Under the pieces are notes generated by a model. It saw only the letters and a program-made list of their open reading frames with translations, searched no databases and had not been told where the DNA came from. Of a stretch of DNA of 64,000 bases, positions 6,351 through 32,989 are shown piece by piece. The DNA comes from Neodothiora populina (taxonomy: Eukaryota): the NCBI RefSeq assembly GCF_041146345.1, contig NW_027191409.1:372001-436000 (forward strand). The letters run 5' to 3'. The position numbers were made by a program, and so were the translations under genes. The first letter of the stretch is position 1; every line of letters starts with the position of its first letter.

Positions 6351-7435
6351 CACGACGTACTATCAGGCTAGATCGCTTACAGAGAATGAAAGTAATGGGT
6401 GGCTAATGAGTGGTGAATTAGGAGTGACTCTGCCATCGGGTACTGATTACCAATTGTGGTCGTTGGCAACGCCAAGCCCAATCGCGCCTTCGACCCCAAA
6501 CCGTCTGCGTCTCCACTTTCACCACTTCTTGACTTTGCGTGCGAGTTGTCGTATACTAAGCGCTCACTACGATATAAATACAGCGATAACCGCTGTAGTA
6601 GAAGCGATGTCAAAAGAGATGGCATCGGCTAATAATAGTGAACCCGGTCGGCGGTACAACTTTACTGCAGGTGCCGTAGAACGTGTGGTGTTCAGCGAAT
6701 ATTGAAAGTCGAGAAGCTGCATCTGATAGTTGTTGCATCATGGACAAAGGCAGTGGAGGGTTGCCTTGCGCCCTCCGTCACTCTTTCTGCCACTCAGGGC
6801 TCAGGAGTCGGAGGTACAGACCATAGCGAAGGAGAGGAGTAGTGAGTAAAATGCTACGCGATAGCACAAAGACAACTGTGATTTGCACTGAATCTTCCTT
6901 TACGATGAATGTCTCACGACATTATGTCCAAGACAAATATCTCTAAGCGTAAGTGTCAGATGCTGCATGGTTAATCTTCAGTTCATGAGGCTACGAGAAC
7001 AGCAATTGCGTTGGTCGACCACCTCGCATCATCTGAGCCACCCGCCTCAGTAACCGACCTTGTCCTATGGGTTACAAACAACCCTTACAACTGACACCTA
7101 AGCCACCTTCAGTAGCTGTTGCTACCTCATATTAAAACTGGATGCAGCACTACTGTCGGGTTGACCATTCTCATACAAGAGGTGTCCAGGACCTGACCAT
7201 CGGCTTCGCCATTGCTCCTGAAAAAGGCAGGAACTGCTTCACCTTCCCTTCATTTCGCTCCTTCCACTCCTTCCACTTCATCCACACCCTTCTGTGCACA
7301 GACCGTCCTAAATCAGTGTTGATGTGAAGCGGGTCCTTTGACAGACCATCATCTACCTTACCCTACGCTTTGTACCTTACCCTTCTATGGTATTACCTGA
7401 AGAGAGGACTTCATGTTTTGACCACAAGCACCAAC

Positions 7436-10400
7436 ATGGCAGATGCCGATCCATGCCAATGGTCGCCGCGTGAAGTAGCGCACTACATACGCACCTGTCT
7501 GCAAGGCAACATTGACACCTTAGGCATACGCCATGTTGCCCACTTCGATGCAGTGCAGCTTGCTGCTCAGTTTGAAGACGAAAATGTGAACGGGTTTTCT
7601 CTGCTCCAGGATATCAACGGAGACACTCTGAAGAATGACTTTGGCCTCGCTAGCATGAGCACGCGGACTGCGATAACAGTAGTTCTCGATAACCTACGCC
7701 AGGTGTCCGACAACTTCAACATAGTCAAGAGCAAGCCTCTACCTCCATCACTCTTTTCACTGTCCGCGGTACCCTCTTCTCCTACTATTCACCTTGAACC
7801 TGGACCTCGTTGCGATGAGCGCCTTGTCGAGATTGAGACAGGCCGGGACCGGGGCAGACTCAACTTCGAATCTACAACGTCGTCCATGCCGAGCCGCATG
7901 AGCACGCCGGACTTCATCATCAGGCGAAGATTGATCAGCAGAAGGGAACATGATGACGACCGACACTCCTTCAGTGATCTTCCGGCACAGGCTTTCCCTC
8001 TTAACGATATTTTCTACGGTGCTACCAAATTAGGCCACGAGCTTGATCTGTCTGAGTCTGCTACCGATGATTTCTCCTTCGTATCTAGTGGACAAACCCA
8101 CCCCGGCCTTATCAAATGCGTTGGTCACCGCATGAAGCACTTTCTCGGCAATGCGCAGATGGAGAAGACCATGTTTCTCGGTGAACCAGCTGTCGCTTTA
8201 TACCCATACGCGAGGAGGCTTCCTCGCCATCCTAAAGCAATGTCATCAGAAGAAACTCCTAGAGCGATCACTATGTTTCAAGCTCGAGACGACGGCCGCA
8301 TCGCTGCGATACGCACAGATGAGGATCATCTTGACGCTCTTCCTTCGGACGACGACGACGACTCCTCCATCACCTCTTCTAGCCTAATGCAGGGAAACCC
8401 TGAGGAGGATCGCGAGATCATCAGGGACGCAAGAACTACTTTTGACCGAAACAAATCTGCACTGATAGTAAATGAGGTAATTCAGGAGATCACTCTGGCC
8501 TGGCATGAAAATGAACAGCCAACCTTGGAGAAGACTCAAGCTTGGCGCATCTGGCGGCACTTCCATGCTTCTTGCCACGTTTTAGAGGACAGGCTCCAAC
8601 ACCTGAGATCGCGTTGCGACAATTATGTCGAGGAGATACTGAAGGAGCACTGGCGGAGCGAAAAATCTCTGAGGAAACAATGCGCTTGTCTCGAAGCTAC
8701 CGTCGAAGACATTGCACTTGAGGAGTGGAAGATTGAAGTCTCCCAGCGGAAGAAACAGCCCGATCGGGAAAAGGCGCCTCGAATGAGCATAACGAAACAT
8801 GCCATCCGTACTAGTTTAGACATCGACCACAGCAGGTTTATTTCAGCTGATACACTAACTAATATTAATGGACTCTGGTCAGATGATAATGTCCGCACAA
8901 CATCTCTGGATCCAGATAGCCATGAAGGGTCTAATGTCGATTCCGAATCGCCTCTGGACTACGAACACCAGCACGATGTTAAGTCTGGTCAGGAGCAGTC
9001 TAGCGTTGACCAAGATGGAGACATTATAATGACCTCGCCGGTAGAAACCGAGATTCCACCGCAATCATCTTTGCCTGCGATAGACTTAGACGACTACATT
9101 ACTATATCGTCCTCTTCAGGATCGCGACCTCCAACGCCGCGAAAGGTGGCATGCGCACATCTACAAACTCGTGGGGATGAGGACTCGTTCTACGCATCAA
9201 CCGAAAACATTGAGTCATGGCAATTCCAGAATCTCGAAGCTGAGATGGATGCTAAGAGGATCTTGATCAAGATTGTGTATGAGATGGATTATCATATAAA
9301 AAGACTGATCATAGGGTATATGAACAAGACTAGTCTTTCCGAAATCTCTCTCGGCATAAGAGAGGTTTGCTTGACCTTTCCCTCAGAGGCACTGACTTAT
9401 GCGGAACACGATATCGAGACGTCGAAAGCTATGAATTGCGTAGCACGACTGTATCTATGTTACCGTCACGAGATCGCCCACTACTGGACGAGTCCTGCGG
9501 TAGACTGCGGTCACTCGTCCGCGAAATCCAGACCTATCACTGACTATTCCTTGTTGCAATGGCATATATGCCTTAGAAAGGCTTTGTCATCGGTACATAA
9601 ACCGATACCTGTCCTTGAGCTCACGGACGACGATCACGAGGATGAGGATGAGGAAGAGGATGAGGAAGAGGATGAGGAAGACGATACGGAAAGTGTGATT
9701 GCCCATACTTCTCGAAAGAGGAGTGTAGTAAAAGACAAGACTGCAGAGAATATTTGCCAGAAAGCTTTAGAAAGACAAGCAGACTCCTCAGTGTATGAGC
9801 CCTCGACATTGTTGAGCCAAGGGCGCCACAATAAGATCATCATATCTCGTCGCGGTGATGGCGACCTGTCGCTCGCTGTTTACCTTAATCCCCACCTGGC
9901 GACCAACCTCAAGCCTCATCAGGTCGAAGGTGTCTGATTCATGTGGCGTGAGCTTACTGTTGCTGATGACGACGACGGTCAAGGATGTATCCTCGCACAT
10001 ACCATGGGGCTCGGCAAGACTGCTCAAGCGATCGCGTTGTTAATAACGATAGCAGAGACTATACTCTCTCCAGAAAAGAGACTCTTCATTCCTCAGAGCT
10101 TGACAAGGCAGCGCACATTGATAACATGCCCACCCGGGCTTATCAGCAATTGGCAAAAGGAGATGAAGATGTGGGACTTGGATAATATACTAGGAATTAT
10201 CTTTAGTATTGATTCTGAGAGCACAGACAAGTCTGCTCGCATGTCGATCCTGAGATCCTGGGATGCGAGTGGGGGGGTCTTGCTGATAGGCTACAAATTA
10301 CTTCAGAACTTTCCGAGCGGTGATGCGGAAAAAACTCGAGACTTCACGACTGAGGAACGTGATGAAGCAGCAGGGATTATCCTAAATTCTCCGTCTCTTG

Positions 10401-11839
10401 TGATCGCGGACGAAGTACATAAGCTGAAGAACGCTTCGTCGAAAACTTCCCAATGTGTTGCAAGATTCAGGAGTCAACGAAGAATCGGCTTGACGGCATC
10501 TCCGATGTCAAATAACACGCAAGAGATTTATGCAATAATCTCGTGGACAGCACCGGGATATCTTGGCTCTGCTGATGAGTTCCGAGCACATTATGGAGAG
10601 CCGATTGAGGCGGGCACATACAGTGACAGCACCCATTACCAACAGCGGCGGAGTCTGAAAAAGCTCAGCGCATTAAGCCGAATCATCAGCCCCAAACTGA
10701 ATCGAGCCGACATAACGGTACTGAAAGGTTCTCTGCAGGCGAAGGTCGAATTTGTTTTAACTATCCCCCTCACCTATGTTCAGAAGACAGCGTACACTAA
10801 ATTTGTGACACACCTTCTCTCCGGAAATGGTCAGACGATAAGCCAAACTCAGCTTTTTGGCTGACTTGATCTCCTCAGACTGTTATGTAATCATCCATTA
10901 TTGTTCCGCAGCAAATTGCTTGAAAGTCAGACGACTAATACGCAGATCCCAGCTGCTACGGCTGGATCTGTGGATGAAAATGGAGATGGGGAAGGGGAAG
11001 AAATCGCTCATGACGACGAACATGTTTCACCTCTCGACATCAGCGACAGTATGATCAAGGACTTATTTCAGTCATTGCCGGAGGGTGCCGATGAAACTGG
11101 CTCACACAAAGTGCAATTGGTGGAAGCTATCATTAAAAATTGTATCGACGCCGGCGACAAAGTCTTACTCTTTTCTCAAAGCATACTTTCTCTTGACTAC
11201 CTTGAGAGACGCTTGCATGGAAGACGTTTCTCACGCATTGACGGTGCTATGAAGCCAAAATCACGTTCCAGAATCCTACAAGACATGGAAAATGGTATGT
11301 ACGACGTGCTCTTGATCTCAACGCAAGCAGGCGGAGAAGGTGTTAATATACAATCAGCCAATCGAGTTATAATCTTCGACTTTTACTTCAACCCTACATG
11401 GGAGGAACAAGCGATTGGACGAGTGTATCGGCTAGGCCAACTCAAGCCAGTGTTTGTCTACCGAATCGTTGCTGGAGGAACGTTCGAGAGCAAGCTATAC
11501 AATCAGGCTCTGTTCAAGGCAGCTCTAGCATACAGAGTCATCGACAAAAGAAATCCCATGCGCAACGCTAACAAGAAAGCGCGAGAGTGGCTGTCTATAC
11601 CTGAAGATGTACCGCAGGACGATATTGAGGGCGACAAAGGCAAGGATCCTATGGTGCTAGACAAGCTCTTGGAGGCTGAAGGGACTCAGGGCATCATCAG
11701 AGGTATCAAGACTATGGAGACCTTACAGAGGGACGCCAATGATGAGCCGCTGACAGAGGAGGAACAGCGTGAGGTCGAAGAGGAAATTCGCAAGGCCTCC
11801 CTCCTGAAAAACGCTAGACGATCTGCGCCAGGGTTGTAG
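7436..11839 (+). pseudogene. SNF2-family (ATRX/RAD54L2-like) ATPase; one reading frame interrupted by two in-frame TGA codons (9935-9937, 10862-10864); pseudogene or recoded gene
   Basis: ORFs 7370-9937, 9941-10864 and 10901-11839 are in the same frame; motifs LKPHQ, GCILAHTMGLGKT, DEVH, LTASP, KVLLFSQ, EEQAIGRVYRLGQ. Confidence 0.85.
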
Positions 11840-17056: not shown

Positions 17057-18449
17057 CTAATTGACAGTGGGCTTCTTCAGCAAGCCAAATGCTAATCCAG
17101 CAACACCTAGCATGCCTGCCGCACCAACAGTGTAAGCGGTATCTCTTCCAGCCCACCAGTACAATGTGCAGAAACCGAGCGGACCAAGCGTCCTACCAAT
17201 CTGGCCCCATGACCTATGCGAGCCCAGCTTGCTGCCCCGTTCATTCGAGTCAGCCTCGAAGGAACTCAAGGAGTTCAGACCAGTGACGACGGTTGCCGAC
17301 GTCACCGCTAGCAAAGCCGCCGCACCATAGAGTTGCTTCTCGGTTTGCAGTCTACCTAGCATGACGAAGGCGGCTAGACAGGCCACGACTCCTGTTTGCA
17401 CGACACGAAGAGGATGCAAACGTCGAGTTACAGAGCCTTGGAGGATTGAGGCGATGATGCCGATGAAGCCCAGAAGGCGACCCGACTGAGCTGAGCCGTA
17501 AGAGAAGAGGTCGTATGTCATGAAGGGAAGTGAGAACTCCATGCCAGAGAAGAAAAGGATGAAGGCAAAGTGGGTCATGTTGAGCAGTGTGTGGCTATTC
17601 GTCCTCTGTACTTTCGCAGTCTTTTTGTCCTCGCTCTTATCCTTGACGACTCCATTGGAGGCAGGGGCAGCCGAGAAGTTGTGGGTCTCGGGGAGATATG
17701 CGTAAAGGTAGAGCGTTTCCGTGACAATGAGAAAGAGCGAGAACCCAGCGGCTGTTGCGAAAGGATTGGCAGCAACAAGAGTGATGGTACTCAACCACGC
17801 CCCAAGAGCTGGGCCGAAGGTGAAGGCAATGCTGAAACATGCGCCGATCAAGGCCATGGTCGCACCACGCTGCTTCTCATCACTGATATCGGTCGCAATA
17901 GCCAATGCCAATTGCACATTGCCTTCACTGAGGCCGCCCACGATTCGCGAAGCCAGGAAAGTACGGAAGTCAGTCGCTGCAACCCAGAGAGCGACTGAGA
18001 GGATGTTGCCAACCATGGAGCACAGGAGAGCCTTCCTGCGTCCATAGCGATCAGACAAAGTGCCAATGATAGGACTGGCTATAGCCTGACAGAAGGAGAA
18101 GAGGGAGCCAAGGGCACCACCCAGAAGGACGATGTCATAACGATCGTTAATGGGCTTTGCAAATGAGTTCTTGTATGTGTTCAAGGCTGACAGAACATGG
18201 CTGAGAATGGTTGGAGATGACGGCGTGTTGGCAGTCCGAGATGCGTCTTGCGCGCGGTAAAACTCGAGTAGCTTGGGAAACAGAGGGAGGATGAATGTAA
18301 AGGAGATCTTACAAGCGCATCAGCAAAGGTGTGCCTCAAGTGCATATGTAGGGGGTTTATTGACATACCAAGTCTAGCAGCAGAGAGATAAAGAGTACTT
18401 TCAACACCTTCTTACGCTTCTCAGGCGTCACCGGTCCTGCTTGTGCCAT
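17057..18449 (-). CDS. MFS transporter (MFSD10/tetracycline-efflux-like), 2 exons (intron 18308-18368)
   Basis: MFS motif A GTLSDRYGRRK; SRIVGGLSEGNVQL; N-terminal exon MAQAGPVTPEKRKKVLKVLFISLLLDL. Confidence 0.9.
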
Positions 18450-20624
18450 GTTGGGATTGGGTCTGTGTATGGAAATGTATTGATTCACAGGCTATGTGGG
18501 GTAAAAAGGATGTTGTGTTGTGGGACGACAACACACAAGTCAAGCACCAAAGCGAAGAACAAGGAGAGGGGTACCGGGTCTCAGGTATTAATACAATCCC
18601 TGCAACCGAGGTGGTAGCGTGTACAAGGACTTGTACAATGGTCGAACTGACACTTGTCTTTTGCGTCCAATAACTCAAATAGCGAACATGGTCAGATGTA
18701 AAGCTTCGCAGAAGTCGACTCAGGCTGGCCACATCACATCTTCTAGACGATCATCATCACTGTATGACAAGGTTGAAAGGTGTCTCCTGTGCTCAGCTGT
18801 TTGCCTTTACTAAATGCGGAGGTGGCTCTCGGTGGCCCTCGTTGGCGTCAATTCTCATGCAGGAACATAAGGCCATCCTCGGCTAGTGGTGATCATTGTA
18901 AGCCTTTGGAAATCAGCAGATGGGGCCAAACGTGAATAACCTCCATGGAGCTTTGCCACAAACGTCTCATCTTACTGGTACCGTAGTTGCGAAACCAAGT
19001 CCAGCTATTGTTATTATGCATCATTTGAAACAAGGCTTCGCTGATTGGGTATCTTCAGATGTGAAAAATGCAGAACTCTCTAAGGCAGGTGGTCACTCCT
19101 GCTACTTTTACACTATCCCTTGGAGGCAAGCAGACAGGTTATAATTTCAGGTCTTCACTATGCATGTCGAGTCTATAAGCCTTGACAAGTGCCCCGGAAG
19201 ATGTTTTTACCGAGTGCTTCTCAAGCGCATCATTCCAACCAATATCTCCAATACTCAAGATGCGTTGCTACCTTCCATGCGTACGGTACTGGCTTTCACC
19301 TGCGATCAAGTCCATCGATCTTACTATCAAGCTGTCTCGCCCTCAGCGCCTTTGTAGCCTGCTGTTTGGCCAGTTCAATTTGGCATTGGCAGGCCTTCAC
19401 TCAGCCATTACCAAGAGGGGTCTGAGTTCTCAAATAATCTGTGACTAAAGTGTGTTGCCAAAGTTTGTCTGCTGGGGTGACGTTATGACGCAATATGCTT
19501 TGAAGATGATGAGTCTATCGCTAAGGTAGGGTTTAAAGTAGAAACGTCGTTCACTGCTTTTCGAGTACAGTATCTAGTTGTAGCAGGTCGATAGGTGAGC
19601 ATGTTGCACTGTAGGGGCCCGGAACATCTTCTGGTTACAGATTATCACCACCTTCGACAAGTGCACCTAATGTACCTGACCTCACACTCAGCGGACGTTA
19701 CAAGAAATGATCTAGCATTAATGTATCGGCTGAAGCTGCTGACGTAGACGTAGTTTGGCGCCATGGCGTCTGTGCATAGTTCACATTCATCAATCTGGTT
19801 TCCCCGCAAGCCATATGCAATTGATGTGACTTGGGGAGAGGCCTACCTAGCCTTGCTTAGGAGGACCACCTGCTCCAGTAATATATTCATTCCAGGCGAC
19901 TTCAATACTGCGTCGACCTTGACTTCCACTCAGCCTTGCTTACCACGTTCATCTCTATCCTCCGCTCAGGTCGAAGTACCAATCTACATGTGCTAACGTG
20001 TTACAAGACGTCTGGACCTATCCTTGCCTTGCAATTGTCTGTCTCAACTATATGAATATCATGCCGCTGCCTGCGGAGCCAACAAGGCATGCAGCTCCAA
20101 GTGGTGTATCATCTCACGCGTCGCGAGGTCGCTAAGCAGTCTTTGCGTGGAAAGGACTTTCTCATTGGCAGTAGCTTTCACGCTGGAAGTCCATTTGCTT
20201 GCGCAAAAGCATTACTTCTCACTCTCTTACATGGTCTGAACAACTAGGCCTGGACAGGCATCTTCCTCCTTTCTGCCCGCTTCTCCAGGTGACGTACAGT
20301 CCATTTCAAAATGTGCCCATTCGCAGGAAATCTGGTCGGCCTACACGTGTCAGGAGCAGGAGAATCTCACGACTCCTTGCCACTGCACTGGACCAATTGT
20401 GTCGAAAAATGTCAACAATAAGATCCGATTGGGCGACTTCAATGGCGGAATACTCCATCGCAGCGAACCACATTACAAGACATGTCATATATATCTTGCG
20501 CCGTCATGCATCTACCCATGATGATCAACACACAAACTTTCTATAATATCTGTTGATGTGTCTCTATAGACAGGAGCCAGAAGAACTTCCGTTTATAAGC
20601 ATCGTGGGCTTATACGTCCACATA

Positions 20625-20888
20625 ATGTGCGAGTCTAAGATTGTTTATTACAGTCGTTGCCAACATTATCGGCGCGTTCCACATCATTGTCTTGCTGCTA
20701 CTGCTTCCTTGCCTTCTTACAATCGACAAACGCTGCTGTGGGAGTACACACCTTGCGCTGATTGGGACGAACATCGTTGGGACCAATGGGAGGGACCCGA
20801 AGTCAATCAGCAAAACCGCTGTAGGGAATGTATCCGACGGGTCCGAAACAATTACGGCACCCGAGATCCTTTTTCTGCAAGGTACTAA
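20625..20888 (+). CDS. Small Cys/His-rich protein, MC..CxH..CxxC family member 1 (87 aa)
   Basis: MCESKIVYYSRCQHYRRVPHHC..PC..CREC; ATG context ccacataATG; motif shared with three neighbours. Confidence 0.7.
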   Translation: MCESKIVYYSRCQHYRRVPHHCLAATASLPSYNRQTLLWEYTPCADWDEHRWDQWEGPEVNQQNRCRECIRRVRNNYGTRDPFSARY

Positions 20889-23391
20889 GCATAAGGTATA
20901 CCAAGAATTTCACCTGGACTCCTACCTGAAGGGATGCACCTTTCTGACGCCCCCTACAAGGTCAAGATCAATCTGGCTACTGGCAAACAACGCGTCTCAT
21001 GCCAGTGACACCACCCTTGGTCAGAAGCCAACATCTGCCAAAGCTAGAAGCGACCGTAGCTCTTCACTTAGGCTTAATTTTGACAACTAAGACTTTCATC
21101 GAGTGCAGCCGACCCAGACATACTTGTCTACGATCGGCATTTGACTTCATTTTCAACTCTCAGAAGCATGAGTCAAGTGAGCTGAACCAATAGAGCATAA
21201 ACATTGGTCCCATAAAGCATGGCAGCAAGCAAGTTTTCGAAGGGTAGCACTGCTTGATGGATAGGATGAGCAGTGCACCAAAGCCCATAAAGTTGTGACA
21301 CGCAAGCCGATGATAATTCACGTGCAGCCTTTCCATCATACGCCCTATGGGTGACGACATCACAACTGTCACTTATGTCCAGTAAGATCCGGTCAGTCAG
21401 ATCTTATTGCTTGATTGGCTACTCCTGTGTGTATCTGGGGCTTGCAAACGGAGTTGCGACTGACTGCGGGTCTCGATAGCTCCACAGCGGTCGTCGATCT
21501 CTCTCGAGGATGAAAAAGTGGACACAAAACTCTGAGCCTGACGTAGTCTGGTAACACAGTCTTTGTGAAAACTTGGCTTCAGACCCTGTGCTAGCAAACA
21601 TCAAACAATCTACCGGCTCTCGTGGTAGCCTTATCACGCTTGGTTTCATAAAGCAATTGGTGTGGCGAGGTCACTGATGTGGTATGGACAGAACCACATT
21701 GAAGGTTATTGGAACTTGACAGAATACAAGGCCGACCGCGAAACTCTGGTTCCCGCACTGTGGCAGGATTACGTCGTCTCTGATCCGAAGTGACCTTACT
21801 CCAGAGATACAGCGCGGTCGGAGAGTGCAAGGCGTGCTAATGGTAGAACGTACAACACGTCGCGTGTGGCCAGGAATCAAGGAACCTCTTGCCCCAACGA
21901 TGGCATCGCTCTGAGGAATCTCTAGTCTGGCATCATGATTCCGTTCACGGCCTATGGCCAACTCGCATGCTCAGACCGGAAGTCCAAGCAGCTCGAAGGC
22001 CGCCAGATCACTCACACTCAATTGTACTTGACACCAGTCTTGTATGCTGGGTAGAGCGTACAGAACTTTTGCTCTATGATCCCCTCTTGCAGTGACACCC
22101 TTTGAAGAAGACGATCCTTGGACCTCATAAGAACGTTGTTCTTCCCCAAAGCTTAGCCAAATGTGCTGCGAAAGAATCATAGCAGTCATTGCTCCTGACT
22201 ATGAGCCCTAATAATACACCAAGGATACTTGTGGATTGCTTAGTCTGATGCTACTGTCGTATGGACTGCTGCACAAGAATCAAGGCAGCTGGCAAATTGG
22301 GTTACATCCCACATCCCAATCTATGCTGGCTCACCAGTCCGCAAACTACGATGGTAGTCATAAGACCTAGCTTCAAAGGCAGTCGCTAAGCCAAGGTACA
22401 GGCGATCGAGCTATATGCACCCTACTTGAATGTCACATGTTTTCCAGCTCTGAGAAACGTATGAGTCCACGATGAGGGGATTTGTCTGTAGGGAGGACAA
22501 TCCTGTTGAGAGAAGTTGCTGCACAGCAAGATTATGGAAATGAGGCACGTTACCCCTCCCTCCTATGCCAATACAAGGCTATCGTAAGAATGAACTGCAT
22601 CCTACTGGACATGGCTCCGTTCGCTAGGCATCGGGGCTGTGCACTGCTGGCATAGGGCGAGGTCGATAATCGAAATAGCAACCTCTCATACCGGTTACTT
22701 GGACTCCATGAAGTTTCAGTCATTGACACAGCATCTTCCATTCGATGACCAAGGGTGAGGTATACCTCGTGATGTTTGGAGAGAGTCGAGGTCCACCTAT
22801 GGAAATGAAATTGGAGTGTAGACAAACTTGGCATGCTTGTGCTACGGTACTATGAATATGCTTCTTCTCAGAGATGTCCTTCACAAACAACCACACTGCC
22901 TCAATGGAAGAAGAGAGACTAGATGGTCAGTCTTTCTCTCATGTTGGGCAACGTCCACGCTGAGGATTGGTTGTACATGCCTCGATGCAATCCTTCTCGA
23001 TTTGCCTGTGTATATAACCACGCCCCTGGAACACCATCACGATATTCTTCGAGCCTGCATTGCAGTTCCATCACTCTCGCTTAGCTACTTACCTATTCTC
23101 TTACTCTCTGTATCCTCTGGCAGGATCACTATCGCTGTCAGCACATCCTAGACACATTCGCCTGTCGCTTGACCAGCCAATTTCACTTAGCATCCGACAT
23201 TCTTCACATCCGTCAGGGGTGCTCCCAAACCGACAGACATTATACATTGCCCTTTAGAGTCGAGCAGAACTCGTCTACAGATAATTCTGTTGACCTTCTG
23301 TTCATCATCGTCAAGCTTCGAAGAGGCAGTCTTTTCCCACCAACCATTGTTTCATTGACTTACGATCATCAACCACAACAACGAAAGAAAA

Positions 23392-23760
23392 ATGTGCGGC
23401 GCAAAACTCGTCCATTACCACGCCTGCTTACACACGCGTCTGATCCCCGTCAAATGCAACAGCGAGAACCCGCTGGTACGCAAGCAATACCGCTTCGCCG
23501 ACGGCGAAGAACTCGAACTCTCAGGAATCGACCCTTGCGAAGGCTGGTCCTTTTTCAGAGTTGATCTCGATGCTAGTGATGGTGGAAGTTCTGCTAGTGG
23601 TAACAATGAGAGGTATGGGGTGAGTATTGGGAATGAAGTATCGGGAGGTGATGGTGGCAGGGGTGATGCTGGGAATCTGCCTGGCCAGCCGGAGGAGTTG
23701 ATTGGGTTGTGCAGGCAGTGTAAGGTCAGGAGACATAATCTGCCTTGGAGGATCGGGTAG
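23392..23760 (+). CDS. Small Cys/His-rich protein, MC..CxH..CxxC family member 2 (122 aa)
   Basis: MCGAKLVHYHACLHTRLIPVKC..PC..(Gly-rich insert)..CRQC; ATG context aagaaaaATG; TATATAA near 23011. Confidence 0.7.
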   Translation: MCGAKLVHYHACLHTRLIPVKCNSENPLVRKQYRFADGEELELSGIDPCEGWSFFRVDLDASDGGSSASGNNERYGVSIGNEVSGGDGGRGDAGNLPGQPEELIGLCRQCKVRRHNLPWRIG

Positions 23761-24589
23761 TCGGGGTGTTGGTTACATTCTTTTTGTTCACATTGATCGT
23801 GATTCTCCTGCCGATGTGGGTCATGGGGTCTTTTTCATGCCTCGCTGGCTCGAGGCATACATACTGTTGACGAATCTACGATCGAGGCGCTTATGTATCT
23901 CAGGGGCGTTGATGATTCTGAGATTTCAATATTGTTTCTACCCGTATTTTCACTTCTCATATTCGAGCATTCTCGTGGGGATGTTATGCACTGATGATAC
24001 TCTTCTCAAGTACACTAAACAATCCAAACATGTTGTTCGAAATTCGTCCCTACTTCCTCCAAAAGGCTTCCTATGTGATATCACTTCATCTCGATGCCGA
24101 GACTCCATCGGCGCGAGTGTATCTGTGCATCACGTGGTAATCGCAACGACTCTACCACCTATGACACCTCCTACGCAACACAAGCCAGAGGTGAAGCCGA
24201 GGTCTTTAGACATATGCTCACGAGAACTCCACGAACCTCAGTATACCGTGGAGTCACGTAGTAGTTGACACGTCTGTGTGCACCGTCGCCGAGATGCATC
24301 CAAGGCAAGTTTGCAAAACGTACCTGCAATGATTTTGACGTGGCGACAGATGCGTTGTCTGTTGGAACATGTGGGACCGAATCCGATACTGACTTGCTTG
24401 TGCATGTTGTGTAGTATATAAAGACAGGAAGGAGAGTCGCAAGTGTGATGGATCAATGTCCTGCAACTTCGAGACATAGTATACTCCTCGATCGTGCTAG
24501 CAGTCAGACATATCACAGAAGAGACTCCCAGTCCACGAACGTCCATCAGTCATCATCAGAGGAGCCAGATATCACCTCCACCAACAACA

Positions 24590-24889
24590 ATGTGCAAGGT
24601 CAAATACGCACGATTCGCCTGCGGCCACGCAGAGTACGTGCTCGTCACGGCAGGCTGCGATAAAGCCGCCCTCACGCCCAGCTGGACCTACGATCCGGTC
24701 TGGAAGCAATGGATTCGAGCCTGCATTGTTCACTTTCCCTACGTCGAGTTCGTGCCTGCTGATCACCCGGATGATCCGCTCACTGTTAATGTCACTGTGC
24801 CGCATACGGGATGTACGAGGTGTGAGCCGCCGCTCCTACATAGGGCTTCTGGACTGCCGTTTTATTGGAAGCCTTCCAAGAGCGCTTGA
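24590..24889 (+). CDS. Small Cys/His-rich protein, MC..CxH..CxxC family member 3 (99 aa)
   Basis: MCKVKYARFACGHAEYVLVTAGC..AC..CTRC; ATG context caacaacaATG; TATATAAA near 24415. Confidence 0.75.
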   Translation: MCKVKYARFACGHAEYVLVTAGCDKAALTPSWTYDPVWKQWIRACIVHFPYVEFVPADHPDDPLTVNVTVPHTGCTRCEPPLLHRASGLPFYWKPSKSA

Positions 24890-25386
24890 TAAGTGAGGGC
24901 GTTAGAGAGGGCTTGGTGGTCTTAGGTGGCATACATGGTGGCCGTGGGGGTGTGGGCAGTTTCGAAGTAGTGGAAGTGAAAGGATTACAGGTCTGAGACT
25001 CATCGGATAATTCGATTCGAGTAGGTTCGAACGGAGAAATAAATCAGTTTCCTGATTTCAATCTCATGAAGGCACCTGATCCCGTTCAAGGGTGCCCGGT
25101 CGCACGCCGTCCAAATGGAAGAGCCGCGTATGTGGTTAGGTTTGTCTCTGTAGTACAAAAGACTGCGCTGTCCACGGGTAGCTGTACGACTAGTACCATC
25201 AAACATCTTCATATCGTGTCCGATGATGATGATGCTGCTGGAGATGATGCTCAATAGGATATAATGCATGTAGGGGACTGAACTGCGTCGAACATACTCC
25301 ATGCTTTTTTTCAACATTGTCCAGCTACTTTGACCATCGCAATTGGACTACACACATTCTCTACTCTAGCTCGTTGTTAAACCACC

Positions 25387-25686
25387 ATGTGTCGCAGGAG
25401 ACTAGTGGAGTATGAATGGTGCGGTCATGTCTGCTGGGTGGCTGACTTCTGCGACCACGCACCATACAAATACTATCCAGTACTTCGAACATTCGCGAGG
25501 CGCCCTTGCCCCTGGTGGAGGCAGATGCGACGTGCAGATGATGGAGTGGTAGAGCCATGGACCAACTTGTGTAGGGACTGCATTTGGAGAAGACGGATCA
25601 TGAGTATCCTTTCTGTCTTCCCGGACTATTTCCAGCGGCCGGGCAATGGGGCTGATCTGTGCCAGGCATTCGGACTGGCGATATAA
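25387..25686 (+). CDS. Small Cys/His-rich protein, MC..CxH..CxxC family member 4 (99 aa)
   Basis: MCRRRLVEYEWCGHVCWVADFC..PC..CRDC; ATG context accaccATG. Confidence 0.7.
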   Translation: MCRRRLVEYEWCGHVCWVADFCDHAPYKYYPVLRTFARRPCPWWRQMRRADDGVVEPWTNLCRDCIWRRRIMSILSVFPDYFQRPGNGADLCQAFGLAI

Positions 25687-26107: not shown

Positions 26108-27311
26108 ATGGCCTCGTCATTACGCAAGGCGACTGTCAGGGGATCGCAAGCCTGGGCGAGGGAGGTACGCGGTCAATCACAACAATATCTGCGAAAGCAA
26201 TCGTCGTTTGCACAGCTAGAGCCAGAGATGAAGGCGAGGAAGATCCGCCCTATATTCGATGATATGACGCCTCAGTATTCTTATCGACTGGACACTGCTT
26301 TGGCAGATTTCATGCCCGGTATTAGGTTAGTCACAATTTTCTCAGTATCAGAAACCAAAAGACACATGGGTGGTTGACATCGAACACAACAATAGTCCAC
26401 CAAAGATCTTGGCGGCCCCCGCGAGACATTTGCCACTTCCCATACCTCATCATCTACTCTACTTCGAGCCGGCAAAACCGCCATCTGAGCTTTTGCCTGA
26501 TGGAACGAATCCAGATCAGTCTCCGGGCGAGCCATTTGTCAGGCGCATGTGGGCCGGAGGTGCTGTGCATTACAACACCGCAAACCCGCTGTATATGGAC
26601 AACAGCCGAGGTGTCTGCATCGAAGGTATTAGAGACGTAGCAGTCAAGGGAAAACCTGGAGAAGAAAAGGTCTTTGTTGGCATAGAGCGCAGGATGGCGA
26701 CTATTACTTCAGATGAGCACAAGTGTCTGGCTGCGTGCTCTACGCATCCTGACAAGATTGCTGAGCTGGAAGATAACATCCGAGCTCGGCTATGGATGCC
26801 TAACGATACTGAGTTCGGACCCGCGAGTATCATTGAGCGACGCAACATTGTGTTCATGCGAGAGAGAAGCAGCGAGGAAGCTAAAGCTGCTGTTGAAGCA
26901 TCGCGCAAACCCGGCAAGATGTTGAAGCCACAGCATGAGCCTGATTTCACGCATACACTGGTTCCCGACGCACAGCTTCTCTTCAGATATAGTGCCCTGA
27001 CATTCAACGCTCACTCTATACACCTTGATGCGGGCTACTGCCAACATGTGGAGGGACATCGTCACCTGCTGGTCCACGGCCCGCTATCATTCACTTTACT
27101 GGTGAGTCTGTTGCAAAACCATCTGAAGAGTACTGGCAGCAATGAGGTTGTCAACTACGTCGAGTACAGGAACCTCGCACCACTCTACGCGTATGAGCCA
27201 CTGAAGCTGTGTGGCCGGAAAGCCGAAGCTCCTGGCAGGTGGGATGTCTGGGCTGAAACTCCCGAAGGTGGAATAGCGGTGAAGGGCACCATCAAGACCA
27301 GGACGGCGTGA
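26108..27311 (+). CDS. Hotdog-fold dehydratase/hydratase (HTD2/mesaconyl-C4-CoA hydratase-like), probably mitochondrial, 2 exons (intron ~26326-26395)
   Basis: RRMWAGG, LFRYSALTFNAHSIHLD, LLVHGPL, YRNLAPLY motifs; basic N-terminus MASSLRKATVRGS resembling a presequence. Confidence 0.85.
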
Positions 27312-27639: not shown

Positions 27640-28736
27640 TTACCCTGCACCAGGGCTGAACCCAGCTGGGGGCTCAGGATACGCACATCCACAGATTGGA
27701 CGCCTGCCACAAAATGGTATCCATGCTTTGTACAGATCAATCTGACGCTTTGCATCGGCAGCCATATCAACGGTCAGTTCTACAGTGGTAGCACGAGTAG
27801 CGGCTTCTATTTCAAGCACTCGCAGCATCCAATATTCAAGGAGGGGTGAGTACCCTTTCACAGGAATAGGCGTCGGTTGTTCGAATGTTGCTTCCTTGGC
27901 CTGAACGTGCGAAAGCGCTGTTTCAGAAAAACCTGAGTGGCTCTTATCGACGACACGCTCGATCTCAAGCTTAGCTGTGGCGTACCAGACATGGCAGTCA
28001 TCGCCCTGGATGTGGGGGGGACATTCTTTCTTCGGTCCCTTCTCTGTCAGCAAATAATGAATGATACTACCAAGAGCCCAGACATCCGCTGCTGTTGAAG
28101 CGATCGGACATTCTGGAGGTTGGAACTTGGGGGTGCCCCCACGATGCTCGTGTGGAGTCAGGTCATTAGTGGCCATTCCGAAGTCAATGATGACAATGTC
28201 ATCGAACAGAGTACCAAAGGGCGCATACTCAATCAGCAGGTTCTCTGGTTTAAGATCTCTATGGAAGATATTGTTGAGATGCAGATGGTGAAGGCCTTCG
28301 GAGATTTGCACCAACACATGCCAGATAAAAGCCTCGGAAATTTGCAACTGAAGGCATGGAAGCGGTGTACAAGGTTAGTAAGATCACCACCGCTGTGCAG
28401 TGGCATGATCAAGCGAAGCGGGGTCTCTTGAAACACTTCTATGATCTCTATGATGCGCGGATGCTTCGGTAGCCTGGTCAGTATGTTAGCTTCATGAAAA
28501 TAATCGACGTGAGGATTAGGCCGTACTATGCTCTTGACAGCGACAGCCTTGTGCGTGTCCATATCATGGTATCGGTCGCAAATCGCCTCACCTCCAGAGC
28601 CTAGTGGCTTTACATATCCGTATTTATCCTCGAATCTTACCACGGAAGAACGTAAATATGGGGTGAAGTCGCCAGCGCCTTCTCCAAGTTGCGTGTTGGA
28701 TGGTGAGTTGATAATGCCTGTTCCGTCGTCGGCCAT
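27640..28736 (-). CDS. Ser/Thr protein kinase (NIMA/Nek-like) with an apparent one-base frameshift near 28340
   Basis: LGSGGEA, VAVK, HPRII, GGDL in ORF 28233-28736; EAFIWHV, HRDLKPEN, DFG, PPE, DVWALG in ORF 27640-28347. Confidence 0.85.
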
Positions 28737-30470
28737 GATCGGCTGTGCCAGCTATAGAGCAAGCAAGCTTGATAAAGACAGAAGAAGGTTACGACACAGC
28801 GAACCCCAATATATACTGACAATCCAAAAAAGATCGAGTCGAATGGGTCAGACATGCTAGTCTTTGTTCTGTTGAGCTGTCTTTGTGGATGTAGAGAAAG
28901 ACTCGCACCCGCACTGAACAATGGGCCTTTCTTTGCAGCTGGCACAGGACAGATATCTTTAATGCGAACATTGTTTGACACTTGCCGCCGCAGTCTGACC
29001 ACAGTCGATCACAGCCAGAGGGGCTGCTGAAGATTTAGCAGAATGTGTTCCATGGATGACTACTTGATCGATACGTAAGGTATATAGTAAAGACAAAAAG
29101 ACGAGAGGTGTGGGTCAGATCGATCAGCAGTTTTATATTCGGAGCTACCTCCGTACCTCGATTGATCTTCCATTCCGTGATCTTTACTTAAAGCCAGACC
29201 AAGTATCGCAGCCTGGCCAGTGAACTTGACACTACTCATTATTCCAAGCTCAGGGATCCGGTTTACGAGGTGCTAAGGAGCAACAAGAGCCGGAGCGCGT
29301 GAATCGTCTATCGATTGTAGTTGCAATAAGGACGACTGAGCGAGACCTTATTCCTTATCGCACGACACAGGGCGGAGAACAGTTGGCCCGTGTGGTTTCA
29401 CGGTACTTGACGAACGTGCTGCCAAGTCTGCAGTGAAGTAAGTTTGACGTAAGGAAGGTGAAGTGGAAGGCATCGATCGCGCTGCTCCTCAGGACAAGGA
29501 AGGAACAATAGCAGAAGTCGATCCATGCTAACACTCTTCAGTCCTGTGCATGTAGAAAGGATCGGATCACGGCGGGACTGATTGCCCCAATACTGTACCA
29601 TTATAGTAGGTATTTCTCAATATTGCTATTGGCGGTGGTGTGATGGGAAAAGCACAAGTGTGGTGGGAATGACGTTGATCGTCTGGGGTTTCTCGGCACC
29701 TCGAGCTGGCTGGCAGGCTTGGGGAAGAGGCCTGAAGAAAATCGAAGATGAGTGGGACTTTTTTAGATGCAAAATCAATGCACCCACTCTACGGAACATT
29801 TGCGCATCGTCACGGACATATACCGTAAGGCACTCCCGGTAGATGCGCGTGATTTCAAAACGACTAGACCGACTACCCCTGGACATAGGCCGACCGCTCA
29901 CTCCCGCGCGTGTGCACAGAGACAGAGACGCCCAAAAGCAGGCAGAGAGATTCGACATCCATTAGCTGCGGAGTCATTATTGCCCGATCTTCGACCTCAC
30001 CTGAACCAGACCACTGCACCTGCCTTTACCACCAGTGATTATTGCTGTCGCTCCTGCCATTCAACAGAGTTTTACCCAGAGACTTCCTGAGCGGGAACCA
30101 CAATGCAAGTTTGAGTCGCGATTCGCTTTTTGTCGTCGACAATGGAGACAGTCTAGAAACCTGAATGAGCTTTCCGGTGTATTCAACTTCAGCTTCGCCC
30201 ATATATCTTGTCATCCGTTTCGCTACCTCTTCCCCTCCTGTTCCCGACCTTCCGTGCGCGTGAAAGACGAGGCTCAAACCGAGTCGCCATAAACCGTCTG
30301 ACAAAATCAAGCTACCTTACTCCGAGATACATCGTCTTTTCCCCGGCACTGGCCTGGCTGCCTTGACGCCAACCTTGATCGCATATACTAACATTATCTC
30401 CGTCTCATCCGTCGAGCGACTCTGGGGGGAGAATCTTACCGTCCCAAAGATCTGAAGGAGACACCGCAAT

Positions 30471-32989
30471 ATGCAGACCCAGCCTCGCACACGGAAGCGC
30501 GCAGCTCCAGGCGCATCGCCCGACTTGCAGCAGGACGTTGGCGCGCAGCCCTTTCAATACCAGGCAATGCAGGATTCGCCCTTCAATACTGATCCCATGG
30601 CCAACTATCCCCCAAATCCATATGACGGGTTGAACACTCTGGATCCTAGTTTTTACAATACACCGGCCTTGCACAGCAATCAATCCCAGGCCTTCGCGAC
30701 GAATGGCGCCGCTGCTTCGGGCTCGACAAATCCATCCAACCAGCTCGTGCGTCGCGATACCAACCAGCAATTAGCGACAAGGAACCCTCAGCGAAACCAG
30801 TGGAACAACTACAACGACCAGCGACTTTCCTCCGAGAGCAGGGTATGGGAGAACATGGAAGAGGATGGAGAGCAAGACATCGACACAAAGGCCGCCATGG
30901 CAAAGAAGGACGCCCAAGCTAAGCGCAAACAAATCCCCCCTTTGTCCAAAAACTTAGCAGCTTTTTGGACTCTTCCAACAACACCGACCTCATTCGCTGG
31001 TCCAATGATGGCAACTCCTTTATTGTTCTGGATGAAGATGAGTTTGCTCGCACCCTGATTCCGGAACTGTTCAAGCACAACAATTACGCTTCCTTCGTGC
31101 GCCAGCTCAACATGTATGGTTTCCACAAGAAAGTCGGCCTGAACGCAAATTCAATGAAGGCGGCAGAGAAAAAAGTCAAGGATCCCAACGTGTACTGGCA
31201 CGAATACTTCAAACGTGGTCGGCCTGATCTCCTGTGGTTGATTCAAAAGCCGCAGAGCAAGACCAATGCTGCCAAGCGGAAGCGCAACGAACACGACAAG
31301 AGAGACCCGAACGACAGCGAGGACGATGTTCGAAGGACCTCGCCCGAGCTTGTTGATTCGAGTCATGTGACAAAACCCCAGCGAGCAGGGCAAGGTGAAT
31401 TGATGGTATCTATTCCTCAATCCGAACTGCACAATGTTCGATCCGAGTTGCAGAAGCTGCAACGGCAGCAGGGTGTCATATCGAAGATGATAAGCCAGCT
31501 CAAAGAGCAAAACGAACAGTTCTACAGACAAGCAACTGCCTTCCAGGCCTTGCACGACCGGCATGAAAACTCGATCAACGCCATTCTGACTTTTCTCGCC
31601 ACATTTTACAATCGGAGTCTAGACGGCCAGAACCCGCAGAACCTGGTCAACATGTTTCAGAACTCAGTGCAACAGAACCAACACCAGGGTAGCGTCGTGG
31701 ACGTTGGTGACTTGCCCGAGGCGAACATTGACAACAACCAGCAACTCCAGAGATATCCAAAGCGACCCCTGGCTCTCTTACCACCTCCTCACACTGGTTC
31801 CACTCCTTCTACTAATCCCGCTTCCGCTCGATCCTCGATGAGCCCGTCAATGCGGCAGCGATCGAATTTGTCTGTACCAAGCGCTCTTCCCCCGCAACAA
31901 CACCAGCAGCAGGCCCAGCAACCGCAACAGCAGCAACAGCAGCGTCAAGCACCAAGAGCTAGTTCAACGCCACATGTGAAGAACGATGCCGAGACGCCCA
32001 ACTACCTTTCTCAGCTGCCCGAGGATGATATGATCTCGCTTCTCAACAATGTCAACGCCTCCAACAGTGCCTCTCCAAACCTACCTGGCGGGTCTAATTT
32101 CGACTTTTCTTCCGCCTTGGACCATTTCCAGACTGCAAACGGCGCCTCACCACTTACGCAACAGCAACGCGACAGTATGCTTTCTTTGATCGCACAACAA
32201 GGTCAACCGTCAACTTCCCGGCCTGGCGCCAATAATGCTTTGGTCGCGCCCACGCCACCACCGATGCCAAGTCTGGACCAATTGGCCCGCACGCAAGAAC
32301 AGCTAGACATGCTGACCCGTCTCCAACAAGACCAAGACTCGAAGGTGGCGGATCTAGCAGGTCGCCTCCAGCCGCTGAGTCCAAGCGGCACGATACCAGG
32401 GATGGGCGGACCCGGCGATCCAGGCGACTTTGACATCAATGCGTTTATTAACAGTGACGACAACTACTTCAATCAATTTCCTAGCACTGGAGGCAGCACG
32501 AACGTGACAGGAGGCGACATGAGCAATACCGCTCAGTCAGGCACTGCACGAATGGGCACCGCCGATGACGAATTGGGCGGCGGCGGCGCAGGCGACATTG
32601 ATTTCAGCAATCTGGGAGACGCGTCTACGTGGAACTTTGACGCCGGCGGCAATGCTCTGAGCGGCGACACTGATGATCTCTTTGGCGAGTACGGCACTTC
32701 GGGGGGTGACGACGACACGACCAGCAATGCGGCAGGGGTAGGTGGGGGCGGGGTGGGGAGCGGAGCGGCGTCGTCAGCGGACATTAGCGACAGCAGAGCA
32801 GAAGACGACATGCGCGATGGTAGAGGTCGCATAGTGGGAAGTGTCACGAGCGAAGAAACGTCGCCTGCTGCTGCTGGATTCAGTGCTGGCGATGATCTTG
32901 CTTCTGTCGCTGCAGCAGGAGAAGGCGGCGGTATCGCTCAGTCTGTCGAGGGCGACACGCCTGGCAAGAAGAGGAAAGTGCAACGATGA
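30471..32989 (+). CDS. HSF1: Heat shock transcription factor with an apparent one-base frameshift at ~30935-30943
   Basis: KRKQIPP then, in the -1 frame, FVQKLSSFLD..LIRWS..FKHNNYASFVRQLNMYGFHK (HSF DNA-binding domain), followed by a heptad coiled coil. Confidence 0.9.

Follow-up and report, generated by a model that had tools for sequence, protein, structure and literature searches.

Our results suggest that a 64,000-nucleotide stretch of the Neodothiora populina genome (NCBI RefSeq assembly GCF_041146345.1, contig NW_027191409.1, positions 372,001 to 436,000 of the forward strand), which we call the window and number from its first letter, carries a tandem array of genes for very small proteins with seven spaced Cys and His residues. 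Of the four open reading frames (ORFs) in this array, ORF1, ORF2 and ORF4 very probably represent a real protein-coding family, which appears to be previously unannotated, fungal and narrowly distributed. The array had been noticed in a first-pass annotation of the window, and all four + strand ORFs are present where that annotation had placed them, each starting with Met-Cys:

ORF1: 20625..20888, + strand, 87 amino acids (aa); family member, no close orthologue found; candidate ligands C2, C12, H14, C22, C44, C66 and C69, no extra Cys.
ORF2: 23392..23760, + strand, 122 aa; the orthologue type with most relatives; candidate ligands C2, C12, H14, C22, C49, C107 and C110, no extra Cys.
ORF3: 24590..24889, + strand, 99 aa; very diverged copy, no homologue found; candidate ligands C2, C11, H13, C23, C45, C75 and C78, no extra Cys.
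ORF4: 25387..25686, + strand, 99 aa; orthologues P0010/P0014, P0013 and the metagenome locus L001; candidate ligands C2, C12, H14, C22, C41, C62 and C65, extra Cys C16 and C92.

The spacing of these residues is as the first-pass annotation had described it: the intervals on either side of C-x-H are x9 and x7 in three copies and x8 and x9 in ORF3, and they are followed by x18-26. Its further observations also hold. The CxxC motifs read CREC, CRQC, CTRC and CRDC, a Pro-Cys is found in three copies, an aromatic residue stands 2-3 positions ahead of CxH, and all four ATGs have A at -3. The TATATAA reported upstream of two ORFs lies before ORF2 (-381 nucleotides, nt) and ORF3 (-175 nt). None of the proteins has a recognizable signal peptide. 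This was judged from the hydropathy of the N-termini in 11 of 11 sequences (the window ORFs and their relatives, see below), with no dedicated predictor: the peak 9-residue Kyte-Doolittle mean is at most 1.38 (starts within the first 22 residues), and polar or charged residues follow the Met-Cys immediately.

To what extent such a motif occurs by chance was estimated with the pattern MC-x7-11-C-x-H-x5-11-C, scanned over the six frames of the 64 kb window. This N-terminal pattern gave 4 matches, all in the four ORFs, on one strand and within 5 kb. In dinucleotide shuffles (n=200) it was matched on average 0.055 times per shuffle, with a maximum of 2, so that the number found in the window is far above the chance expectation. 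The full seven-ligand pattern was matched 4 times in the window and never in the 200 shuffles. A possible fifth copy, a pattern match at 23109-23165, was rejected because it lacks support from the family hidden Markov model (HMM). No further copies were found in the window, the best non-member six-frame piece reaching E 0.13 against this HMM.

Relatives of these proteins exist elsewhere. An HMM built from the four ORFs, as the first-pass annotation had proposed, was run exhaustively against 1.84 billion representative sequences and found relatives that keep the Cys/His spacing. The hmmsearch gave 9 matches at E<=1e-3, five of them true relatives (P0005, at 7e-11, P0007, P0010, P0012 and P0013). 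The remaining ones (P0006, P0008, P0009 and P0011) were rejected as repeat proteins with several short matched stretches each. Further relatives came from a word search (P0015), a cluster look-up (P0014) and a metagenome scan (the DNA locus L001). Every relative is unnamed and derives from raw assemblies or metagenomes.

These relatives split into an ORF2-type and an ORF4-type, which have in common the Met-Cys start and the ligands, and whose C-termini are conserved within each type. The ORF2-type proteins (P0005, P0007, P0012 and P0015; 44-60% identical to P0005 or ORF2) are 85-86 aa long from the Met-Cys and end in P-x-R-I/V-G/R. The ORF4-type (P0010/P0014, P0013 and the L001 ORF; 47-53% identical to ORF4) measures 98-99 aa from the Met-Cys and has the tail I-M/L-x-I-L ... 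P-D/N-Y/F-F ... G-x-G ... C ... G-L-A, with the end G-L-A-x and an eighth conserved Cys near the C-terminus (C92 in ORF4). The length of the family is thus 85-99 aa, an insertion in ORF2 not being counted. Note that the N-terminal extensions of the predicted P0010, P0012 and P0013 proteins are mutually unrelated right up to the Met-Cys, which fits a true start at this position. In the window, the first in-frame ATG after a stop is the Met-Cys codon in ORF2, ORF3 and ORF4. ORF1 has an extra in-frame ATG at 20556, 23 codons upstream, with T at -3 and also encoding Met-Cys (ATGTGT); the upstream extension (20556-20624) shows no likeness to the family.

In an independent test, a profile made from six foreign sequences only was searched over 1962 six-frame pieces of the window. 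This profile found ORF2 (1.4e-26), ORF4 (4.4e-16) and ORF1 (1.7e-12), the next best piece being at 0.54. The array had been presented as four equal members. For ORF1, ORF2 and ORF4 the foreign-only profile upholds this membership; ORF3, undetected by the family profiles, does not share this standing.

Moreover, the DNA of the one foreign member for which it is available, L001, allowed us to analyze the coding constraint; the ORF2-type was compared as proteins. In blastn and tblastx comparisons of L001 with the window, the similarity is confined to the ORF (652-948 versus 25387-25686) and ends at the stop codon. ORF4 and its L001 counterpart are identical at 52 of 98 residues, and their differences by codon position are 33/26/63. 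By the Nei-Gojobori method (98 codons), the proportion of nonsynonymous differences (pN) is 0.31 and that of synonymous differences (pS) is 0.81, which is saturated. In the other two frames of the alignment the order is reversed (pS 0.35 and 0.27, pN 0.44 and 0.45). Since pN is below pS in its own frame, ORF4 is a protein-coding gene under purifying selection. In the ORF2-type, the fixed length and the conserved last residues of the proteins argue for the same constraint.

The array had also been called old and rapidly diversifying. The first part agrees with our data: ORF2 groups with foreign orthologues, and the paralogues within the array are only 25-33% identical. The second part finds no support, the only measurable pair (ORF4 and L001) being under purifying selection. 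In a maximum-likelihood tree of the 11 sequences, ORF2 and P0005 group together (support 87/82) within a clade of the ORF2-type (85/88); the ORF4-type sequences, whose branches are short, resolve into no clade, and the branches of ORF1 and ORF3 measure 2.4 and 3.8, respectively. The grouping of ORF2 with foreign orthologues implies that the ORF2/ORF4 duplication is older than the split of the organisms that carry them.

As the first-pass annotation had concluded, these proteins belong to no named family: 11 of 11 members are below the Pfam cut-offs, with no sequence or fold match in PDB. At E<=10, Pfam, with zf-RING, PHD, SWIM, B-box, CHY, CHCH and Thioredoxin among its families, gave no match for 10 of the 11 members, including all four window ORFs, and the sole match was that of P0015 to Thioredoxin (E 0.18; 12.3 bits versus a cut-off of 23.5; over 21 residues). 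The best E in the PDB sequence profile search was 0.72. The exact sequences of the four window proteins are absent from a collection of 15 billion proteins. A word-index search with the four ORFs listed 173 candidates, none at E<=0.01, and with the 9-sequence alignment only 2 already known members, this tool being lossy for this family. A scan of Joint Genome Institute (JGI) metagenomes with the ORF2-type alignment gave 119 pattern matches and a scan of prokaryote genomes gave 17, with 0 confirmed in either. The nearest clusters in the ESM Atlas are unnamed hypothetical proteins from Ascomycota or Basidiomycota (0.89-0.91), a weak lead, and restricting the look-up to named clusters gave no usable match. 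Finally, no description of such a family was present in those parts of the literature that full-text searches by keyword and short peptide motif brought up.

The conserved positions extend beyond the ligands. In ORF1 numbering, M1, C2, Y9, C12, C22, Y32, P43-C44, W47, C66 and C69 are invariant in the 9 members other than ORF3, and V7, R16 and V18-P19 are nearly so. His14 is invariant save in P0012, which reads C-H-C and has a Cys at the His position; a swap of Cys for His is typical of metal ligands. The loop between the PC..W motif and the CxxC varies in length among members, and in 11 of 11 sequences the CxxC and the 10 residues behind it carry a net charge of +1 to +5. AlphaFold2, which does not model zinc, was run with a 10-sequence alignment and gave models of ORF4 (predicted local distance difference test, pLDDT, 70; predicted template modelling score, pTM, 0.51) and of P0005 (pLDDT 75, pTM 0.54). 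In both models, strands 3-9 and 14/15-21 pair to form the first of two predicted N-terminal beta-hairpins, whose turn holds C12/H14; there are further strands, and a Lys/Arg-rich helix begins at the CxxC. Foldseek, which the first-pass annotation had recommended, gave no match for either at E<=0.001 (best E 1.9 for ORF4 and 1.1 for P0005), and in the VIA wide fold search 0 and 2 chains reached Z>=2, the best being 2.2. Such low Z values mean that the models may be poorly packed without metal, and the lack of a match is no proof of a new fold.

ORF3 is the outlier of the array. It was likewise missed by a nine-member profile from which it had been omitted, and hhalign aligned it to the other nine members over 25 N-terminal columns only, at E 0.067. 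It has all 6 Cys and H13 on the scaffold positions and lacks both the PC..W motif and the basic helix after its CTRC. Since profiles made without it do not detect it, what links ORF3 to the other members is the ligand scaffold, the N-terminal hairpin of about 25 residues and its position in the array. From these features we take it to be a paralogue that is intact but has diverged extremely far.

ORF2 differs from its 4 orthologues, all of which lack it, in having a 36-residue insertion rich in Gly, Ser and Asp (residues 62-97, nt 23575-23682). A GTGAGT at 23620 and a CAG ending at 23688 bound an in-frame stretch of 69 nt in this region. This stretch looks like a short fungal intron with no clear branch site, and the frame is open either way.

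Three of the upstream regions also share a sequence. The 9-mer AAAGACTGC, counted on either strand, has 5 sites in the window versus 0.66 expected, a number that was not attained in any of 100 shuffles. Its sites are:

20136-20144, less than 500 nt upstream of ORF1
23326-23334, less than 500 nt upstream of ORF2
25158-25166, less than 500 nt upstream of ORF4
17616, elsewhere in the window
55888, elsewhere in the window

The three ORFs preceded by a site are the profile-supported members, and none lies upstream of ORF3. L001 has only a site with 1 mismatch, no better than chance. On this weak evidence, AAAGACTGC is a possible shared promoter element of ORF1, ORF2 and ORF4.

The island in which the array sits had been described as gene-empty and about 7 kb long. 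Its size is nearer to 8.2 kb. The left flank is an MFS gene (17057-18319, minus strand; MFS_1 1.3e-41), and the right flank is a hydratase-like ORF (26547-27311, + strand) of the MaoC/itaconyl-CoA-hydratase-like kind (PDB 8khg_A, 1.7e-16). Read as 26331-27311 (+ strand), the latter has no Pfam-A match at E<=0.01, and its PDB match to itaconyl-CoA hydratase/MaoC_dehydrat_N covers residues 130-249. Between 18.4 and 26.4 kb there are 54 stop-to-stop stretches of at least 70 aa; leaving out the 4 that hold the candidate ORFs, 0 of the 50 others have a Pfam match at E<=0.01. The island contains 0 direct and 0 inverted repeats of at least 20 nt and no Rfam match, and its G+C content is ordinary (0.46-0.55).

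Beyond the hydratase-like ORF lie a protein kinase gene (27640-28751, minus strand) and an HSF-type factor (30923-32989). The N-lobe (28233-28751) and the C-lobe (27640-28374) of the kinase are on overlapping ORF pieces in different frames, a split which is presumably due to an intron and less likely to a frameshift. Only one public sequencing run, X1 (share 0.06; of uncertain kind, probably DNA), contains part of the window, and no RNA run was found; X1 gave six short identical contigs, at 18300-19086, 25329-25582, 26532-26764 and 28621-28771. All are at or near the 5' ends of genes: they sit by the MFS gene, ORF4 (25329-25582 spans its start), the hydratase-like ORF and the kinase. Elsewhere in the window, an SNF2-family helicase gene (7328-11839, + strand; DUF7607, SNF2-rel_dom and Helicase_C) is in one frame with no frameshift, and this frame is cut by exactly two in-frame TGAs (9935-9937 and 10862-10864), each of which falls in a conserved motif (HQVEGV*FMW and *LDLLRLLCNHP). 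The gene could be a pseudogene with nonsense mutations, the TGAs could be variants that arose in the strain or in sequencing, or they could be read through.

What could these proteins do? The family probably binds zinc, which is plausible because P0012 has a Cys in place of the His and because the CxxC opens a predicted basic helix. The seven Cys/His positions (C2, C12, H14, C22, the Pro-Cys and the CxxC) would bind structural zinc, probably two ions, and without this metal the core would be too small to fold. C12/H14 and the CxxC could form a first, treble-clef-like site, with the C-x-H knuckle at the turn of the first hairpin, and C2, C22 and the Pro-Cys a second. The fourth ligand of the second site might be C92 in the ORF4-type and, elsewhere, the N-terminal amine, a carboxylate or water; removal of the Met would make Cys2, the first ligand, the N-terminal residue. 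An N-degron or acylation site had been considered for this Cys; that it is strictly conserved along with the other ligand positions suggests rather that it, too, is a ligand. The most likely activity would be that of a surface, made by the basic helix after the CxxC and the variable loop, for a nucleic acid or protein partner, with paralogues differing in target. Taken as a whole, a family of small intracellular structural-zinc proteins that bind partners through the basic helix and the loop is the proposal to which we give slightly better than even chances, and much lower ones to any particular partner. It is improbable, as a bolder version of this proposal, that the family represents a new two-metal mini-fold in which the N-terminal Cys gives both its thiolate and its alpha-amine, completing eight ligands in the seven-ligand members, with paralogues acting as lineage-specific small regulators that bind nucleic acids or proteins and have divergent targets.

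Several observations weigh against the interpretation of the array as a family of zinc proteins. Only 8 foreign sequences are known, none of them from an annotated reference proteome, and the foreign-only profile does not list ORF3 at E<1. The codon-usage log-odds of ORF4 (-0.12), ORF1 (-0.08), ORF3 (0.02) and ORF2 (0.17) compare with 0.12-0.42 for the training genes, and the score fails to separate these ORFs from other ORFs of the island; since ORF4, which is demonstrably conserved, scores lowest, it is uninformative. Zinc binding is inferred from sequence alone, and in ORF1 and the ORF2-type the seven ligands fall short of two standard four-ligand sites. Confidence in the predicted models is middling, and no solved fold matches them. 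Finally, the gene neighbourhood has no pointer to any process, and the X1 contigs count neither for nor against expression of the ORFs.

The same conserved residues can be read in other ways. The proteins could be real and conserved with Cys that form disulfides or act in redox reactions, as substrates of the Mia40 relay or as unconventionally secreted Cys-rich proteins. Their small size, the lack of a presequence, the invariant Cys and the CxxC would suit this, the C2-x9-C12-x9-C22 spacing recalls the Cx9C of Mia40 substrates, and the very weak match of P0015 (E 0.18) is to Thioredoxin. However, the invariant His among the Cys, which in P0012 gives way to a Cys, speaks for a metal ligand over a disulfide partner; beta strands, and not CHCH helices, are predicted for the Cx9C segments, and the x9 spacing is not kept in ORF3. 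In 11 of 11 members, no CHCH, Cox17 or thioredoxin family reaches threshold, there is no signal peptide, and 6 of the 11 sequences have an odd number of Cys (7 or 9), all of which makes disulfides an unlikely explanation. The ligands that we assign to structural zinc could also belong to metal-handling proteins, either small Fe-S proteins or Cu/Zn buffers or chaperones, whose purpose is the metal that they carry; a site of an unusual or labile kind might well have seven ligands and an N-terminal Cys, and an MFS transporter gene adjoins the array. We consider this quite unlikely, in view of a Cys content (6-9 in 85-122 residues) far under that of metallothioneins, a conserved non-ligand core (Tyr9, Tyr32, Trp, Val-Pro) and a basic helix that fits a folded recognition module. 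Moreover, no known Fe-S or metallochaperone family was matched, and the MFS adjacency carries little information.

That some or all copies are non-functional here, with ORF3 and possibly ORF1 as relics that are still open and the array unexpressed, has a similarly small probability. ORF3 is undetectable by profiles and has neither the PC..W motif nor the basic helix, ORF1 and ORF3 have long branches and no orthologue in the 1.84 billion representatives, codon usage ranks the four ORFs no higher than others of the island, and the 15-billion-protein collection holds no exact copy of any of them. Yet 4 of 4 frames are intact from Met-Cys to stop with A at -3, ORF3 keeps all 6 Cys and the His on the scaffold, which is unexpected for a decaying copy, and ORF2 and ORF4 have close, intact orthologues elsewhere, ORF4 being under purifying selection. 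This selection is also a difficulty for selfish or conflict elements or precursor peptides (toxin/antidote, allorecognition or RiPP-like, that is, resembling ribosomally synthesized and post-translationally modified peptides) evolving under positive selection: the only pair with DNA shows purifying and not diversifying selection. Tandem, strongly diverged paralogues in a gene-poor island, a pre-CxxC loop of variable length and a narrow taxonomic spread would be expected of such elements, but the orthologues are 44-60% identical and of fixed length, there are 0 repeats and no mobile-element signatures, and no processing sites or modifying enzymes are adjacent. We therefore regard conflict elements as very unlikely, and keep to small structural-zinc proteins as the favoured interpretation.

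If these proteins are expressed and bind zinc, they would constitute a protein family missed by gene finders and by reference annotation. They would also provide a new small metal-binding module, whose ligand pattern and strictly N-terminal Cys have no counterpart among curated families and solved folds, and would illustrate how intronless micro-genes lie hidden in fungal "intergenic" DNA. The practical weight would be modest, given the narrow distribution and the fact that lineage-specific small cysteine-bearing families are common in fungi.

How does the family compare with known small cysteine proteins? CHCH proteins, which reside in the mitochondrial intermembrane space, form a helix-loop-helix with one Cx9C motif in either helix. 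As in these, the members described here are small, have no presequence and contain C-x9-C (C2-C12 and C12-C22); unlike in these, the Cx9Cs share their middle Cys and are in a predicted beta-hairpin, the His is invariant, and ORF3 has x8/x11. No CHCH family match was found in the 11 members. Small secreted effectors and metallothioneins are further candidates, since the family is small, cysteine-bearing, lineage-restricted and tandemly duplicated. The absence of a signal peptide makes it unfit for the definition of small secreted effectors. Metallothioneins are very rich in Cys, arranged in CxC/CxxC clusters, and poor in aromatics; 5-9% Cys, no CxC clusters and a conserved aromatic core (Tyr, Trp) make the family unfit for this class too.

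Closer in design are the zinc modules. The RING/PHD pattern has eight ligands, C-x2-C ... C-x1-3-H ... C-x2-C ... C-x2-C, and as in RING C3HC4 and PHD proteins, the family is small and has 7-8 Cys/His ligands including a C-x-H, probably for two metal ions. It differs in having one CxxC only and no N-terminal CxxC pair, the first ligands being single Cys (2, 12 and 22); 0 of 11 members matched the RING/PHD Pfam models at E<=10, and the RING/PHD spacing is not found in them. The treble clef, a structural class that includes the GATA and nuclear-receptor modules, binds a zinc ion by a knuckle on a beta-hairpin and by two ligands in the first turn of an alpha-helix. Here the family differs in that its knuckle is C-x-H and not CxxC, and in that C2, C22 and the Pro-Cys imply a second site; treble-clef families gave no Pfam, PDB sequence or fold match. 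The likeness is in the predicted arrangement, with C12-x-H14 at the turn of a predicted hairpin and the CxxC at the start of a predicted Lys/Arg-rich helix. In its size and in the logic of its ligands, the family resembles treble-clef modules and two-zinc cross-brace modules and has the defining pattern of neither, and it would be new within a known general kind, the small Cys/His metal-binding modules.

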